A stretch of DNA of 64,000 nucleotides from a virus (taxonomy: Duplodnaviria; Heunggongvirae; Uroviricota; Caudoviricetes), in IMG/VR virus record IMGVR_UViG_3300039208_000295. One strand, 5' to 3'. The notes beneath the pieces are model-generated. The model worked only from the letters and a program-made list of their open reading frames with translations. It did not search any database and was not told where the DNA came from. Position 1 is the first letter of the stretch, and every line of letters starts with the position of its first letter. Both the position numbers and the translations under genes were made by a program. Below are positions 6,995-28,797 of this stretch, piece after piece.

Positions 6995-7234
6995 ATGAAT
7001 ACTTGTGACGTTTGTGAGAAACAAACCACAAATATGCGTACATGTAACGTATGTCTAAGATATGACGAAATATATGAACGCATTCAGGATGTAAGCCTAA
7101 TTCGTAAACGCCTGGCATACATGATGCGATTTTTGCGAGACCTTGAAAAAGGTCGAGCAATGGGTTCTATCGATCAAACTAAAACTGAAATTAGAGTACT
7201 ACGCTGGGTATTAAATAATGAGCAACAAGCCTGA
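6995..7234 (+). CDS. Small zinc-finger protein
   Basis: CDVCEK...CNVC pairs. 79 aa. Confidence 0.4.
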   Translation: MNTCDVCEKQTTNMRTCNVCLRYDEIYERIQDVSLIRKRLAYMMRFLRDLEKGRAMGSIDQTKTEIRVLRWVLNNEQQA

Positions 7235-7688
7235 TTCTCCGTTGGTAACAGTCGATATTGTTATCCTGCTTAGACATGAGTCGCAACGTAGATGTGTACT
7301 GGTAAAACGTAAGAATGAGCCTCACGGATGGGCTCTTCCTGGTGGCGTAATTGACCCCGGCGAATCAGGAATTGCTGCCGCTATTCGAGAGACTGAAGAA
7401 GAAACGGGATGTCGTCTTGCCAATGTGAGGCAATTTCATACTTACACAGATCCGAAACGTGATCCTCGCGGGCCTGCGGTATCAATCGTTTATACGGCCG
7501 AAACTATCGATACACCAGTTGCAAATGATGACGCAGCAGCGATTGGATATTTTGACTTTACGAGCATGCAGGCATATAGCAATGTTCATAATGCTCTTGA
7601 ACATAAAGAGCTTTGTTTTGACCATCCTCAAATTTTGATGGACATCAATCATTTCTATCTGACCCAAGAACGTCCGACTCGTGAGTGA
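7218..7688 (+). CDS. Nudix hydrolase
   Basis: Nudix box GGVIDPGESGIAAAIRETEEETG. Confidence 0.8.
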   Translation: MSNKPDSPLVTVDIVILLRHESQRRCVLVKRKNEPHGWALPGGVIDPGESGIAAAIRETEEETGCRLANVRQFHTYTDPKRDPRGPAVSIVYTAETIDTPVANDDAAAIGYFDFTSMQAYSNVHNALEHKELCFDHPQILMDINHFYLTQERPTRE

Positions 7689-8100
7689 AAAGCTTCATAT
7701 TTTGATTCTGGAAGATGATCCGGAACGTATTCAAATATTCCGGCGTAAGATCCGTGGTGTCAATTTTCAAATTGATTACGCGGAAACTGCTGAAGAAGCT
7801 ATTCGTCTTTGGGAAGCTAGAAACTACGACGTAGTATTTCTAGATCACGATTTGGGTGGTGAATGTTACGTAGACACTAGTCATAAAAACACTGGTAGTG
7901 AAGTTGTTCGCTGGGCTATCACTCGCCAACAAACGTTTCCCCTAGACCAGCCTTATATTATTATTCATTCTCTTAATACACCCGCCGCACAGGACATGGA
8001 AGATAGATTAAAGCGTGATGGTTTTGAGAATGTACATCGTATTCCATTTACTAATCTCATGAGAGATTATCTAGACGATCCGAGTTTTCTATCATGTTAG
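7681..8100 (+). CDS. Stand-alone response-regulator receiver (REC) domain protein
   Basis: ILILEDD near the N-terminus and DVVFLDHDLGG, the phospho-acceptor Asp region. GTG start overlaps the Nudix stop. Confidence 0.6.
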   Translation: MSEKLHILILEDDPERIQIFRRKIRGVNFQIDYAETAEEAIRLWEARNYDVVFLDHDLGGECYVDTSHKNTGSEVVRWAITRQQTFPLDQPYIIIHSLNTPAAQDMEDRLKRDGFENVHRIPFTNLMRDYLDDPSFLSC

Positions 8101-9551
8101 ACCTTCAAAAAATCAATTTGCTGGCATACGGCACTGACAGTTATAAGGTTTCCCACTGGAATTTCTACCCAGAGGGAACTACTCTCGTTTATTCTTACGG
8201 TGAACCGCGTAACGGCGGCATGTTTCCCAACGTTACATTTTTCGGTCTCCAATATATTCTAACCCACCTTGAAGGTGAGTTTGTAACTACCGAACGCATT
8301 GACGAAGCCGAGCGGGTTGCTGAAGACCATATTGGTCCCTACGTATTCAATCGTGCTGGTTGGGAGTACATCCGCGACAACTTTAATGGACGTATTCCGC
8401 TTCGCATTCGTGCTCTCCCCGAAGGCATGACTATTCCCGAAAGCAATTGTCTATTTACGGTAGAAAATCTTGGGGGCGAAGCCACCAAGTGGCTTACTAA
8501 CTGGTTTGAAACCATTATCTCGCACGCTTGGTATCCTACGACTGTAATGACTTCTAGTCGCGAAATTCGTAAAGTGATTTTGAAATACCTTGAAAAGACA
8601 GGCGACCCTGCTGGGTTGCCGTTCAAGATTCACGATTTCGGTATGCGTGGTGTATCTTGCCTAGAACAGGCTGCCATTGGTGGCGGTGCCCACCTTGCTA
8701 CGGGTGCCATGGGCACCGACACCATGATTGCTTTGTGGTGGTTAAAGGAATACTATGGTGCCAATGAAATGCCGGCATTTAGTATTCGTGCAACTGAACA
8801 CTCTATCATGACCGCGAGAGGCGAAGAAGGCGAGGCCGACGTGGTTCGTCAAGTGCTCGATAACACCCCGAGCGACCAAATGGTCGCCATGGTTGGTGAT
8901 TCGTATGATATGCTTCGATTCGTACGAGAGATTTTGGCTTTGCCCGACATTAAGGCTCGTATCGAAGCCCGCACGGCACCTGTTGTGGTCCGTCCCGATT
9001 CTGGAACTCTACCCAAAATTGATGTAGATGTTTACTGGGCACTGGTTGACGTGTTTGGTGATTCTATTAATGACAAGGGCTACAGCGTTCTTGCACCTTG
9101 TGTCGCAATGATTCAAGGCGATGGTATTAAGTGGAACCGAGTTCAATGTACTTCTGGTCCTGCTTATGTTCACACTGTAGAAATTATTCTTGAAGCTTTC
9201 GAACGTCAGGGTATCTCTGCTGATAATATCGCTTTCGGTAGTGGTGGTGGATTACTGCAACAATTCGACCGTGACTCGCAACGTTTCGCTATCAAGTGCT
9301 CTTATGCTGAGCGTGATGGTAAAGGGTTTGACATCTACAAACGACCGGCAACTGATCCCACTAAGAATTCGAAGCGTGGTCGCCTTGCCGTAGTGCCCTG
9401 CGTTGAGAAGGAATTTGTAACTGTATCGGAAGCAGAGGGTGCAGAACTTTGCCTGATGCATACCGTATTTGAAACTGGAGAACGTCAAAATCTTACTACC
9501 CTAAACGAGGTTCGTGAACGTGCAGCACTCCGTGTCAATGCAAGCGTTTAG
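8094..9551 (+). CDS. nadV: Nicotinamide phosphoribosyltransferase (NAMPT / NadV)
   Basis: 485-aa ORF with NAMPT-family signature stretches: GTDSYKVSHW, FGMRGVS, RPDSG. Confidence 0.8.
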   Translation: MLDLQKINLLAYGTDSYKVSHWNFYPEGTTLVYSYGEPRNGGMFPNVTFFGLQYILTHLEGEFVTTERIDEAERVAEDHIGPYVFNRAGWEYIRDNFNGRIPLRIRALPEGMTIPESNCLFTVENLGGEATKWLTNWFETIISHAWYPTTVMTSSREIRKVILKYLEKTGDPAGLPFKIHDFGMRGVSCLEQAAIGGGAHLATGAMGTDTMIALWWLKEYYGANEMPAFSIRATEHSIMTARGEEGEADVVRQVLDNTPSDQMVAMVGDSYDMLRFVREILALPDIKARIEARTAPVVVRPDSGTLPKIDVDVYWALVDVFGDSINDKGYSVLAPCVAMIQGDGIKWNRVQCTSGPAYVHTVEIILEAFERQGISADNIAFGSGGGLLQQFDRDSQRFAIKCSYAERDGKGFDIYKRPATDPTKNSKRGRLAVVPCVEKEFVTVSEAEGAELCLMHTVFETGERQNLTTLNEVRERAALRVNASV

Positions 9552-10695
9552 AGAAGCACTAAATAAATCCAACTGGGCGGGGTTTATTTTTGAGGCTGGT
9601 ATTGGTCTTGAATTCTCTGCACAAATGGTGACGGGTGACGGGGCGTCAAAAAATATCCTTGGTGTCGAATGTGATTACGCTGCTATTAACGTAAGATCTG
9701 GTGTCAAAGCGGTTTCTTTAGAAAACGTCAAAGAGCAATCACAAAGGGCCTTCAATAAGGCACGTCAAGTGATTAGTCAAGGACTTATCGATCCTAGGCA
9801 CGGACCAAATCCTGATGCAAAACCTTTTGGACTAGTTATTTCTGGTCGACATAACCATGAAGCGTCTCACGCTTGGATTGCACTTACTACACCTGATTGG
9901 ACTGCTCATATGCACCTACGTTTACCTGCTGGTGAACGAGACGAAGTTAGCAAGACTTTGGCAGAAAACGTAGAGTATTTTGTTGGTCACTGTCTTTTCC
10001 CAAGGGCACCGTGGAGCACTCTTGTTAATCGTGGGCATCATGTGGGTGTAGATGTTATTCAGGCTCCTGGCTTGAGTGAAATTGAGCATCTAATGCTTCT
10101 TGGGTCTCAAAATCCACTAGTTTATCATCATGGACAGTTTCAAAGAGTAGAAGATTACCTGCGACAAACTAGCGTAATTTTCCCTGGCTCTTTTAATCCG
10201 CCTACTGCCAAGCATCTCAAGCCTAACCATGTGCTGTATGAAATTACACAAACACATTGTTATAAAGGCAGCCTTTCTTTACTGGATCTTTATCATCGCA
10301 TGAAAATGCTGGATGCTGCTGGTAAACCCGTGCTACTAACTAGCTCTCCCCGTTTTATCGACAAAGACGAAATTCTACGCAGTTTAGTTAATCAAGATTA
10401 CACTTATCTCATTGGTGCGGATGCTTGGAATGCAACGATTGCCCATCATCAATATCCGAATGAAGAGTGGCTTGGAAATAAATTAAAGGGATCACGTTTT
10501 AGGATTCAACCCAGACCCGGTGTGGAAATTTCCGAGAATCAGGTTGCCAGACACTTGAGTCATGTTATAATCGATGGCGACAACGACGAACACAACAGTA
10601 CGGCTGTTCGTACGTCAGACAATCCGAGTAGTCACCCCTTCCTTACTGACGAAGTGGCAGACTACATTCGTAGAATGGGATTATATCAATCATAA
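9514..10695 (+). CDS. Nicotinamide-nucleotide adenylyltransferase-like protein with an uncharacterised N-terminal domain
   Basis: C-terminal half carries the nucleotidyltransferase motif VIFPGSFNPPTAKHL (G-x-F-x-P-x-T/H-x-x-H). Adjacent to NAMPT, as in known phage NAD salvage pairs. Confidence 0.55.
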   Translation: MNVQHSVSMQAFREALNKSNWAGFIFEAGIGLEFSAQMVTGDGASKNILGVECDYAAINVRSGVKAVSLENVKEQSQRAFNKARQVISQGLIDPRHGPNPDAKPFGLVISGRHNHEASHAWIALTTPDWTAHMHLRLPAGERDEVSKTLAENVEYFVGHCLFPRAPWSTLVNRGHHVGVDVIQAPGLSEIEHLMLLGSQNPLVYHHGQFQRVEDYLRQTSVIFPGSFNPPTAKHLKPNHVLYEITQTHCYKGSLSLLDLYHRMKMLDAAGKPVLLTSSPRFIDKDEILRSLVNQDYTYLIGADAWNATIAHHQYPNEEWLGNKLKGSRFRIQPRPGVEISENQVARHLSHVIIDGDNDEHNSTAVRTSDNPSSHPFLTDEVADYIRRMGLYQS

Positions 10696-11125: not shown

Positions 11126-11225
11126 GTAGAATGAGTCTACGGCAGTTCGACTCTGTAAGTGGCAACAGCTAGGCGAATAGGTTGGGGTTGATCGCCCCTC
11201 CCGGTTCGAATCCGGGCATTCTACT
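11126..11225 (+). ncRNA. Over-long (100-nt) tRNA-like element with internal insertions
   Basis: Acceptor gtagaat pairs with attctac. T-arm cccgg-ttcgaat-ccggg. About 30 extra nt lie between the D-region and the T-arm, including a gggg-ttgatcg-cccc hairpin and an internal gttcgact T-loop-like segment. No CCA. Confidence 0.3.
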
Positions 11226-11269: not shown

Positions 11270-11977
11270 ATGAAGAATCAGTGAAGAGGAAACGACACCG
11301 GAATCGTTGTCGAAATCCAGGCCGGTGAAGGTGGAGACGATTCAAAACTATTTGTTGACGACTTATTTTCTGCATACTTAAAATATGCGGAGACTAATAA
11401 TGCCAAGACAGAACTAGTCTATAAGTCGCACGGCAAAGTGGGCTTTAAAGTATTGGGAAATAAGGCTGCCAAGTTATTTAAACACGAAACCGGCAAGCAT
11501 GTAGTGCAACGGTGTCCGCCAACAGAGAATAAGGGAAGGCGGCATACCAGCACTATTACTGTTTCTATTCTTCCTATTCTTAGCTCATCTTCTTTTACTC
11601 TGAAAGAGCAAGATATTGAGACAAAAACCCAACGTGGCCATGGGCCTGGTGGACAACACCAGAATACAACCGATTCAGCCGTCCGTATGGTTCATAAACC
11701 CACGGATACAGTTGTTTTCATCAATGGGCGAGATCAGCATTCCAATAAGCGTTTAGCACGTCAAATTCTGGAAGCTAGAGTGGCCGAGAAAATCCGAGGC
11801 CGCCAAAACCGTGAACGATCTGAAAATAAACGAGAACAGGTTGACGGTGGCGGCCGAGGCAACAAAACTCGAACATACAATTTCCTTGACAGTCGAGTTG
11901 TAGACCATATACTTGGTACTCGCACGAGCAAGATCAAACAGGTCATGAAGGGCCGATTCGATTTACTCTGGAAATAA
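11270..11977 (+). CDS. Class-I release-factor homolog (RF1/RF2 domains 2-4 with GGQ), interrupted by an in-frame TGA at codon 5 (11282-11284). Either recoding or a pseudogene.
   Basis: ATG at 11270, then AAG AAT CAG TGA, continuing in the same frame. RGNDTGIVVEIQAGEGGDDSKLFVDDLF... matches RF1 E-I-R-A-G-T-G-G-D-E-A-A-L-F-A-G-D-L-F. KHETGKHVVQRCP matches E-S-G-G-H-R-V-Q-R-V-P. GHGPGGQHQNTTDSAVR is the GGQ motif. GGGRGNKTRTYNF matches the RF1 C-terminus. No in-frame ATG, GTG or TTG lies between the TGA and the GTG at 11438. Confidence 0.55.
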
Positions 11978-28027: not shown

Positions 28028-28098
28028 AGGTCGTTAGTGTAGTGGTAACACAACAGATTCCAAATCTGTATACCGGGGTTCGATTCCTCGGCGGCCTG
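28028..28098 (+). tRNA. tRNA-Trp (anticodon CCA)
   Basis: Acceptor aggtcgt pairs with gcggcct (two G-U pairs). D-arm gtgt-agtggta-acac. Anticodon arm acaga-ttccaaa-tctgt. T-arm cgggg-ttcgatt-cctcg. Discriminator G, with CCA encoded. Confidence 0.65.
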
Positions 28099-28115
28099 CC
28101 AATACGGAGCAATTA

Positions 28116-28307
28116 ATGCCAACATACGATTACAAGTGTATGGCCTGTGGCCATAGCCTGGAAATTTTCCAGAAAATCACCGAAGGTGCCAAACGAAAAT
28201 GCCCCGAGTGTGGAGCACTCAAGCTAAAGCGGCAGATTGGCACCGGAGGTGCTATTATTTTCAAAGGTGAAGGATTTCACTGCAACGACTATCCGAAAAA
28301 TGAGTAA
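28116..28307 (+). CDS. FmdB-family zinc-ribbon protein
   Basis: MPTYDYKCMACGH...CPECG matches the family pattern M-P-x-Y-E-Y-x-C-x-x-C-G...C-P-x-C-G. Confidence 0.6.
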   Translation: MPTYDYKCMACGHSLEIFQKITEGAKRKCPECGALKLKRQIGTGGAIIFKGEGFHCNDYPKNE

Positions 28308-28797
28308 CTTAGAACTTGAATTAGAAAAGGCGATCAAAATTGCCCTAGAAGCTCATGCGGGCCAAATGGATAAGGCGGGGCAACCCTATATTCTTCATCC
28401 TTTGGCGGTTATGGGTATGGTGGCCACAACCGCCGAAAAAATCGTTGCAGTACTACATGACGTAATCGAAGATACTGACGTAACAATGCTTATTCTCCGA
28501 GGAGCCCTTGCTGTCGGAGAAGAGATTTTTGAAGCTATTGAAGCAATTACAAAACGCAAAAATAAAGAGTCATATCTCGAATACATGAATCGGGTGCGTG
28601 CCAGTAAAATCGCTACAATTGTAAAATTGGCCGATATGGCCCATAACACCGATCCGGACAGAATTAGCTATTTGAGCATTCAAAAGCAATTGCGTCTTGT
28701 AGCTAAATACGCCCGTGGACGCCATTATCTCAAAACTGGCGAATGGCACTCTACTCGCCAATTAGAAGAATTGATTAGGGCGGGATATAGACAGTAA
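28303..28797 (+). CDS. HD-domain (p)ppGpp hydrolase-like protein (SpoT/Mesh1-type small alarmone hydrolase)
   Basis: HAGQMDKAGQPYILHPLAV...VAVLHDVIEDT matches the H-x-x-Q...Y-x-x-H-P-L...L-L-H-D-x-x-E-D-T pattern of the SpoT hydrolase domain. Confidence 0.55.
   Translation, partial: SNLELELEKAIKIALEAHAGQMDKAGQPYILHPLAVMGMVATTAEKIVAVLHDVIEDTDVTMLILRGALAVGEEIFEAIEAITKRKNKESYLEYMNRVRASKIATIVKLADMAHNTDPDRISYLSIQKQLRLVAKYARGRHYLKTGEWHSTRQLEELIRAGYRQ

Follow-up and report, generated by a model that had tools for sequence, protein, structure and literature searches.

Control of a release-factor gene by its own premature stop codon is textbook recoding, known essentially from prfB, the bacterial gene for release factor 2 (RF2), where synthesis of a class-I release factor depends on termination efficiency because of an early stop that is passed by +1 frameshifting at CUU UGA C. 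Early in-frame UGA read-through was once proposed for RF2 genes and never found, and a counterpart involving RF1 and UAG is unknown (Atkins et al. 2016, PMC5009743). Over 12,000 genomes were surveyed in 2025; programmed frameshifting was not detected in prfA, nor was TAG in the prfB motifs (PMC12421855). Here we describe a release-factor gene at positions 11270-11977 of a 64,000-nucleotide stretch of DNA (one strand, called the window throughout) from a Caudoviricetes virus (IMG/VR record IMGVR_UViG_3300039208_000295). The gene has an in-frame TGA as its fifth codon, and we favor, with moderate confidence, a reading in which translation would start at the ATG at 11270 and the protein would be made only upon UGA read-through, so that output would track termination efficiency. 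As in prfB, a premature stop lies early in a class-I release-factor gene, and sister lineages of the window gene share the identical prfB cassette (a Shine-Dalgarno (SD)-like element, a 3-nt spacer and CUU UGA C). Unlike prfB, the window open reading frame (ORF) continues in frame without a slippery codon or frameshift, its product is RF1-type and lacks domain 1, the gate lies before or inside domain 2 rather than in domain 1, and relatives use UAG and UAA besides UGA.

Other described systems share parts of this arrangement. One giant amoeba virus encodes a release factor of eukaryotic/archaeal (eRF1) type. Its gene needs both read-through and frameshifting (as cited in Atkins et al. 2016, PMC5009743) and is likewise a virus-encoded release factor with stop-codon recoding in its own mRNA; that virus infects eukaryotes, whereas here we find a phage, a bacterial-type factor and three recoding forms over a large family. 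In Jade phages, whose genomes read TGA as Trp, an RF1 gene was reported in the standard code (Borges et al., bioRxiv 10.1101/2021.08.26.457843). The Jade RF1 gene lies beside tRNA genes as part of decoding manipulation, as in the window; in the window, however, TGA is the main terminator, the release-factor gene itself has an in-frame TGA, and neither a TGA suppressor nor TrpRS was seen. PrfH (RF-H), a rescue factor paired with RtcB, resembles the window protein in lacking domain 1 while keeping a codon-recognition-like domain and GGQ. Against solved PrfH, however, the window protein shows similarity in the GGQ domain only; it also retains the PxT motif of RF1, and RtcB was absent among the flanking genes checked. 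The A1 protein of the RNA phage Qbeta arises when tRNA-Trp reads through a UGA, which extends the coat protein at its C-terminus. We propose that the window gene would likewise yield a phage product via low-level near-cognate read-through of UGA followed by A, with the difference that a stop at codon 5 gates the whole protein. We found no description of recoding in phage release-factor genes in a literature search of incomplete coverage, so this is absence of evidence only: the release-factor evolution survey of Burroughs and Aravind has zero occurrences of 'phage', a comparative overview of jumbo phages has 'release factor' in its reference list only, and the GeneTack clusters list RF2 alone.

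The window gene begins ATG AAG AAT CAG TGA (11270-11284), and the same frame is then open for 230 codons to a TAA at 11975-11977, exactly as described in a first-pass annotation of the window. Read from ATG 11270 through the TGA, the product is 235 residues long. Public annotation contains only a 179-aa call that begins at the GTG at 11438 (P0001; hereafter, P0001-P0031 denote public gene calls and L-numbers denote related loci). A start at this GTG would remove 51 conserved residues, including the conserved GEGGDD helix tip that aligns with the RF1 segment GTGGEE.

Profile searches placed the protein among RF1-type factors. The 230 residues after the TGA matched Pfam PCRF (profile positions 99-194 of 194, E 3e-25, 89.6 bits) and Pfam RF-1 (E 4e-24, 85.4 bits), both above cut-off. 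The best NCBIfam match was prfA (NF001859 / TIGR00019; model positions 103-334 of 347, 230.4 bits), and the nearest solved structure in the PDB was Thermus thermophilus RF1 (residues 106-332), an alignment that retains the Q of VQR and the HTS motif. The window motif is PPT, which is almost invariant across the phage family, and not the SPF of RF2. The RF1 equivalog cut-offs were missed (230.4 bits vs 400; 221 vs 423), as were those of prfB (154.3 bits vs 370), PrfH (TIGR03072; 81.6 bits vs 166.65) and ArfB (28 bits vs 100); moreover, the protein has a PCRF domain, whereas ArfB consists of a GGQ domain and a C-terminal tail and has no domain for codon recognition. Homology begins at residue 4-6 after the TGA, at least 45 codons ahead of GTG 11438. 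The first-pass annotation had claimed homology to RF1/RF2 domains 2-4 on both sides of this GTG; the profiles bear this out and narrow the assignment to the RF1 type. Domain 1 (about 100 residues) is not matched, as the RF1 model alignment begins at position 103, and none is encoded upstream because the DNA there holds genes for tRNA-Thr, tRNA-Asp and tRNA-Phe and a tRNA-like element. The best explanation for these matches is that the gene encodes a putative phage RF1-type peptide release factor made of domains 2-4 only.

The arrangement at the start of the gene is conserved. A protein search returned more than 2,000 relatives at E up to 1e-20, a count that probably includes ordinary RF1s; among the 120 best matches listed, most have 200-250 residues and are too short for domain 1. 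Eight loci from independent assemblies, 56-67% identical, form the subclade of the window gene (the window, L016, L018, L178, L179, L180, L181 and L263). All eight share one layout, in which an ATG and 1-5 sense codons are followed by an in-frame TGA, 4-6 codons and the strand (I/V)(I/V)(I/V)(E/D)IQAGEGG. The gate stop is TGA in every one, never TAG or TAA, which shows that the TGA in the window is no sequencing artifact. The orthologous leaders comprise 2-6 sense codons with the ATG (MN, MSK, MKN, MNKQ, MN, MSN and MDMNKS), and both leader and post-TGA spacer vary in length by whole codons only. SD sequences precede the leader ATG in L181 (TAGGAG), L178 (TAAGGA) and L018 (TAAAGG). The segment upstream of GTG 11438 is under purifying selection, with a ratio of nonsynonymous to synonymous substitution rates (dN/dS) of ~0.2 over the 51 codons between the TGA and the GTG-equivalent position, and this N-terminal segment scores 72 bits against the family hidden Markov model (HMM).

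More distant relatives carry their stops deeper in the gene. In 38 relatives (36-44% identity), one or two in-frame stops lie 33-48 codons in, inside domain 2. These internal stops comprise 57 TGA, 6 TAG and 1 TAA, mostly in the contexts TGA-C (28) or TGA-A (26), and 10-12 of the sites have the TGA-AGAG/AAAG context of the window. Restart cannot rescue proteins with stops inside domain 2, so read-through is presumably in use in the family, and it is mainly because these relatives need it that we infer read-through rather than restart for the window gene as well. The same alignment column holds TGA in some phages and TAG in others, with no sense codon among the relatives listed. We also tested the flanks of relatives with internal TGAs under genetic code 4; six-frame ORFs rose about two-fold in all groups and in the controls alike, so this comparison did not discriminate. 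That a single column holds either TGA or TAG is the more useful argument.

From these observations we propose the following mechanism. Ribosomes would load at the A-rich stretch before the gene, which is probably a ribosome-loading region (other + strand genes of the window are preceded by similar A-rich leaders), and would initiate at ATG 11270. After four codons they would meet the UGA at 11282 in the context UGA-AGAGGA, where most would terminate, presumably via host RF2, to our knowledge the only factor that reads UGA. A fraction would insert an amino acid and continue in frame to give a protein of ~235 residues, predicted to begin MKNQ-X-RGNDTGIVVEIQAGEGGDDSK, where X is the residue at the UGA. 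This residue would most likely be Trp, delivered by a near-cognate tRNA-Trp(CCA), of which the phage has its own copy. Because a fraction of ribosomes would read through, the amount of phage factor would be set by competition between termination and decoding at one leaky stop, and the gene would read out the termination capacity of the infected cell, from which the phage might benefit.

Table 1. Features of the release-factor locus and the candidate decoder tRNA (window coordinates).
Feature	Position	Strand	Remark
A-rich untranslated leader AAAAAAAAGAAAGAATTAAAA	11249..11269	+	Lies before the leader ATG
Four-codon leader ATG AAG AAT CAG (MKNQ)	11270..11281	+	In frame with the release-factor ORF
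In-frame TGA, candidate recoding gate	11282..11284	+	Codon 5; conserved in the subclade
Conserved 3' context AGA GGA AAC	11285..11293	+	Purine-rich, SD-like; alignment consensus TGA AGA GGT AAC
RF1-type class-I release-factor ORF without domain 1	11285..11977	+	230 codons plus TAA
Possible stem GAATCGT (11301-11307) / ACGATTC (11337-11343)	11301..11343	+	Encloses the GEGG codons; significance doubtful
ATC (Ile), first residue of conserved strand IVVEIQAG	11303..11305	+	Sole near-cognate candidate for a rival downstream start
GTG, first canonical in-frame start	11438..11440	+	51 codons past the TGA, inside the conserved domain
PPT tripeptide, RF1-type PxT 'anticodon' motif	11516..11524	+	Read from the sequence
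GGQ peptidyl-tRNA hydrolysis motif	11648..11656	+	Read from the sequence
tRNA-Trp(CCA)	28028..28101	+	Possible near-cognate UGA decoder (by inference); U11-A24 pair in the D stem

Several points weigh against this reading. The SD-like AGAGG right after the TGA would also fit a termination-restart site, and the frame relation between the TGA and the ORF rests on one independent indel (L018). The first six post-TGA codons show weak codon periodicity and a dN/dS of ~0.5, a value drawn from very few sites. No tRNA with a UCA anticodon was found among the 23 tRNAs of the window or among 66 tRNAs flanking 11 related loci, so decoding would depend on near-cognate reading, which is usually a few percent efficient. 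Finally, a product of apparent RF1 type (PxT, Gln of VQR) would not be expected to read UGA, which argues against self-regulation in the prfB sense; with a UGA gate and an RF1-type product, the gene would report host RF2 activity and not its own. The likeness to prfB autoregulation drawn in the first-pass annotation goes further than stated there, for in sister lineages the gene has +1 frameshift cassettes (CUU UGA C or CUU UAG C) that are preceded, at a distance of 3 nt, by an SD-like element. Simple prfB-type self-feedback is not established for the window gene. Close relatives with the same PPT motif have UAG or UAA at the same site. This pattern fits three ideas, i.e., that these genes might act as general sensors of an empty A site at stop codons, that selection might simply favor leaky stops, or that the factor might have a broader specificity. 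With UGA, UAG or UAA at the same site and the same PPT in relatives, the factor may read all three stop codons.

The most serious alternative, to which we assign a distinctly lower probability than to read-through, is that the leader is a regulatory mini-ORF. Ribosomes would terminate at the UGA, be held by AGAGG and restart at a non-canonical codon such as the ATC at 11303, or initiate there de novo, which would make the strand IVVEIQAG the N-terminus of the protein, much as in those relatives whose annotation reads M-(x)-EIQFGEGG. AGAGG(A/T) does directly follow the TGA in six of the eight subclade loci, dS is lower over the first six post-TGA codons than elsewhere in the gene (a hint of nucleotide-level constraint), and some public gene calls begin right at the strand (e.g., MEIQFGEGG and MVDIQAGEGG), although many such 'ordinary start' calls conceal +1 sites just upstream. 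Between the TGA and the conserved strand, seven of the eight loci lack ATG, GTG and TTG, although a near-cognate ATC and an SD-like AGAGG do occur; the exception is L016, which has a GTG one codon past the ATC and is the sole locus of the subclade with a canonical start near the domain. The leader-TGA arrangement itself is retained in the orthologs. In L178, GTC replaces ATC. The ATC lies 14 nt from the SD-like element (GAGG core) in six loci and 7 nt from it in L018; L178 and L180 have degenerate forms of the element (AGCGG and AAGAG, respectively). The TGA-AGAG context also occurs at internal stops where restart is impossible. The first-pass proposal of translation through the TGA is supported by the comparative evidence, and we prefer read-through, with restart as its main competitor.

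It is unlikely, and less probable than restart, that a dedicated phage suppressor decodes the UGA. Such a tRNA, with a UCA anticodon or otherwise unusual, would lie outside the 64-kb window, and the factor would appear only once the phage had switched to opal suppression, within a timed shift in decoding. The phage already has a tRNA(CUA) suppressor (2045-2121), its release-factor gene lies inside a tRNA array in the window and in relatives, a phage RF1 together with a TGA suppressor was reported in the TGA-recoded Jade phages (bioRxiv 10.1101/2021.08.26.457843), and the public sequence is at least 182 kb long, so the window covers a minor part of the genome. The lack of UCA anticodons in the window and in the flanks of relatives weighs on the other side. 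TGA is also the commonest terminator in the window (39 of 81 ORFs), and standard-code ORFs of at least 90 aa span 82% of it, which together indicate that TGA is a real stop in this phage. Genome-wide reassignment of TGA (code 4 / 25) is rejected on the same terminator count and on the absence of a UCA anticodon from the window. With TGA ending about half of the window genes, efficient opal suppression would be costly, and in the relatives with +1 sites a zero-frame suppressor would cut production rather than raise it.

A tRNA-like element at 11126-11225 (+), directly upstream of the release-factor gene, was considered and rejected as an opal suppressor, since it has no TCA inside and the tRNA-Tyr genes of relatives do not align with it. 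Its acceptor stem spans 8 bp (GTAGAATG/CATTCTAC), its T arm is perfect (CCCGG-TTCGAAT-CCGGG), and there is an additional hairpin, GGGG/CCCC. It is recognized neither by the Rfam tRNA model nor by ARAGORN run with defaults; a low-threshold call reads it as tRNA-Tyr(GTA) with an 11-nt 'intron' in the anticodon loop, and the 23 tRNAs of the window include no tRNA-Tyr.

The candidate decoder under the read-through model, tRNA-Trp(CCA), lies within about 1 kb upstream of the release-factor gene in L179, L180 and L181. There, tRNA-Trp(CCA) and then tRNA-Gln(CUG) stand immediately upstream of the gene (L179 980-1601, L180 862-1512, L181 1752-1902). The U11-A24 pair seen in tRNA-Trp of the window, L179 and L180 is the D-stem pairing produced by the classical Hirsh UGA-suppressor mutation, and it is not specific. 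We also considered a tRNA-Trp with a 4-bp anticodon stem and rejected it, as the stem is a normal 5 bp.

The two weakest alternatives can be dealt with briefly. That the gene is dead or mis-assembled, with the TGA a nonsense mutation or sequencing error and at most the 179-aa GTG fragment made, is highly improbable and already contradicted: the lone public call P0001 would suit it, and conservation of the TGA and open frame in eight independent assemblies together with the dN/dS of ~0.2 upstream of the GTG excludes sequencing error, pseudogene and GTG-started fragment alike, with the loss of the GEGGDD helix tip as a further objection. Equally improbable is that the UGA encodes selenocysteine or that ribosomes hop or shift frame over it; a small conserved stem does lie downstream of the UGA, against which stand the lack of any SECIS or other Rfam family match at the locus at E up to 10, the ordinary stability and variable distance of that stem, the position of the UGA in a variable N-terminal tail, the absence of a consistent take-off and landing pair or slippery codon (the codon before the UGA is CAG, AAT, AAG, AAC or AGT), and the fact that the strand IVVEIQAG would be mistranslated in the only other open frame (-1; it runs from an NTG that overlaps the TGA to CGG TGA A).

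The stem also fails as a read-through-stimulating structure. RNAalifold predicted seven pairs with one compensatory change (A-U to G-C) in L178. Its single-sequence z-score is -0.5, not above shuffled controls, and its distance from the TGA varies, beginning 16 nt past the stop in the window and 10 nt past it in L018. It is absent from relatives without a leader TGA.

Beyond the leader-TGA subclade, sister lineages are gated by +1 frameshift cassettes. In L014, L015 and L019, the gene begins M-K-D-(I/V)-L-V-E-I-Q-A-G-E-G-G and meets TAT CTT TAG C after ...FSAYL, with the rest of the gene in the +1 frame; the same place holds TAT CTT TGA C in L017 and CTT TAA A in L021. A larger, more distant group has its site about eight codons later, typically as CGGAGGnnn CTT TGA C. 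At 45-61% identity, a group that includes LR756511.1 (an uncultured 595-kb phage and, at 54% identity, the nearest deposited phage to that of the window) has a short leader ORF, e.g., MKTNRRCL or MNNRRHL before its stop, followed by a +1 shift into domain 2. The 'conserved peptide' VFD/VFE/VFS that follows an apparent in-frame stop in this group is no more than the release-factor-frame reading of CTT TGA C, CTT TGA G or CTT TAG C. L262 is among the sister loci with a CUU UGA frameshift site (AGGAGG CAT CTT TGA G).

Overall, 67 of 172 frame-classified loci need a +1 shift inside the gene, and none needs -1 or +2. At 62 of 83 +1 sites, compared with 16 of 83 control windows, the 15 nt before the P-site codon include an SD-like element, and the modal spacer from this element to the site is 3 nt, as in prfB. 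CTT TGA C and CTT TAG C are the commonest sites, and the gate stops at +1 sites are TGA in 57 cases, TAG in 20 and TAA in 6. The loci recovered by the pipeline include canonical prfB genes of Planctomycetota genomes with their CTT TGA C, which serve as a positive control.

Two observations on individual +1 loci are worth recording. In L001 (LR756511.1, 2906-2990), two tandem +1 sites apparently have to be passed before domain 2 is reached: CTT TAA C (2936-2942) closes the leader MKKKVKNQVCL, and the +1 frame ends in CGT CTT TGA C (2982-2988), where a second +1 shift would enter the release-factor frame. The related locus L104 has the second site only. The same RF1-like gene with an internal +1 site (CTT TGA C or CTT TAG C) also occurs in cultured bacteria, namely Minicystis rosea (L221, CP016211.1), Pyxidicoccus fallax (L223), Archangium gephyra (L226, NZ_CP102578.1) and Thiobacillus denitrificans DSM 12475 (L211). 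These cultured-bacterium copies of the frameshifted gene would be tractable experimental systems.

To place the window gene within its family, we took a census of 134 unique domain-1-less RF1-like genes in the sample, together with 15 full-length RF1 genes from the same scans. The domain-1-less genes divide into 57 with an internal +1 site, 26 with a leader +1 site, 38 with internal in-frame stops, 7 with a leader in-frame TGA (8 with L263) and 6 that look ordinary, some of them doubtful. Recoding is needed in 128 of the 134 domain-1-less genes vs 1 of the 15 full-length RF1 genes. Premature stops are thus a family-wide property. True terminators of the domain-1-less genes are TAA in 94, TAG in 13 and TGA in 23 (of 130), compared with TAA 139, TAG 79 and TGA 192 among 410 flanking ORFs. 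True ends are biased toward TAA and gates are mainly TGA; gates therefore favor the leakiest stop and real ends the tightest.

The window therefore appears to be one instance of a family-wide phenomenon that is apparently undescribed, although premature-stop-gated release-factor genes as a kind are already known. Tentatively, and with less confidence than in the read-through model for the window gene itself, we suggest that phage domain-1-less RF1-like factors may form a large undescribed family, nearly all stop-gated, that might serve as a termination-capacity sensor to tune release activity in the infected cell. The gate would take four interchangeable forms: an in-frame UGA after a leader, an in-frame UGA or UAG in domain 2, a +1 shift from a short leader ORF, and a +1 shift inside domain 2.

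If these readings are correct, control by early in-frame UGA read-through, long hypothesized for bacterial-type release-factor genes, would have its first natural example in the window type, and prfB autoregulation would gain a first RF1-side counterpart in the CUU UAG C relatives, so that the window and its relatives would supply both missing cases in phages. At homologous positions, some of these genes rely on read-through where others use frameshifting, which makes them a natural series. With this series it becomes possible to test how the balance between termination, +1 slippage and read-through is set, what phages need a domain-1-less release factor for, and whether phages sense or rewire host termination.

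There is a practical consequence as well, since gene callers truncate or split nearly all of these genes. Among the public gene calls P0001-P0031, almost every family member is mis-annotated, with N-termini cut to an internal Met or Val start or with a separate 29-aa 'PCRF (weak)' ORF. Out-of-frame N-termini are a further typical error, such as VKAATIPNCSWTTCSPRIFSYC, the +1 reading of GEGGDDSKLFVDDLFSAY.

The genomic setting is that of a large phage with 23 tRNA genes in the window. Besides its tRNA array, the release-factor gene has as neighbors NUDIX, cREC_REC, NAMPT, an NMNAT-like gene, a DenV-like gene and DUF3307, with the DenV-like glycosylase gene just downstream and the NAD-salvage genes (NAMPT, NMNAT-like, NUDIX) just upstream. 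The NAD-salvage/nucleotide module (NUDIX, a receiver-like cREC_REC, NAMPT and an NMNAT-like cytidylyltransferase) occupies 7218-10695, upstream of the tRNA/release-factor block. The amber suppressor tRNA with anticodon CUA (+ strand), one of the 23 tRNAs, is labeled 'Pyl' by ARAGORN; TAG still terminates 15 of the 81 ORFs. The first-pass annotation had likened the release-factor gene to a PTH2 gene interrupted by TAG, which we did not locate with the PTH2-like protein of L015 or by a scan for TAG-joined ORFs. Farther downstream in the window, an HD_4 (RelA/SpoT-type HD) gene occupies 28237-28797; L015 has an HD_4 gene with 50% identity to it, placed two genes upstream of the release-factor gene.

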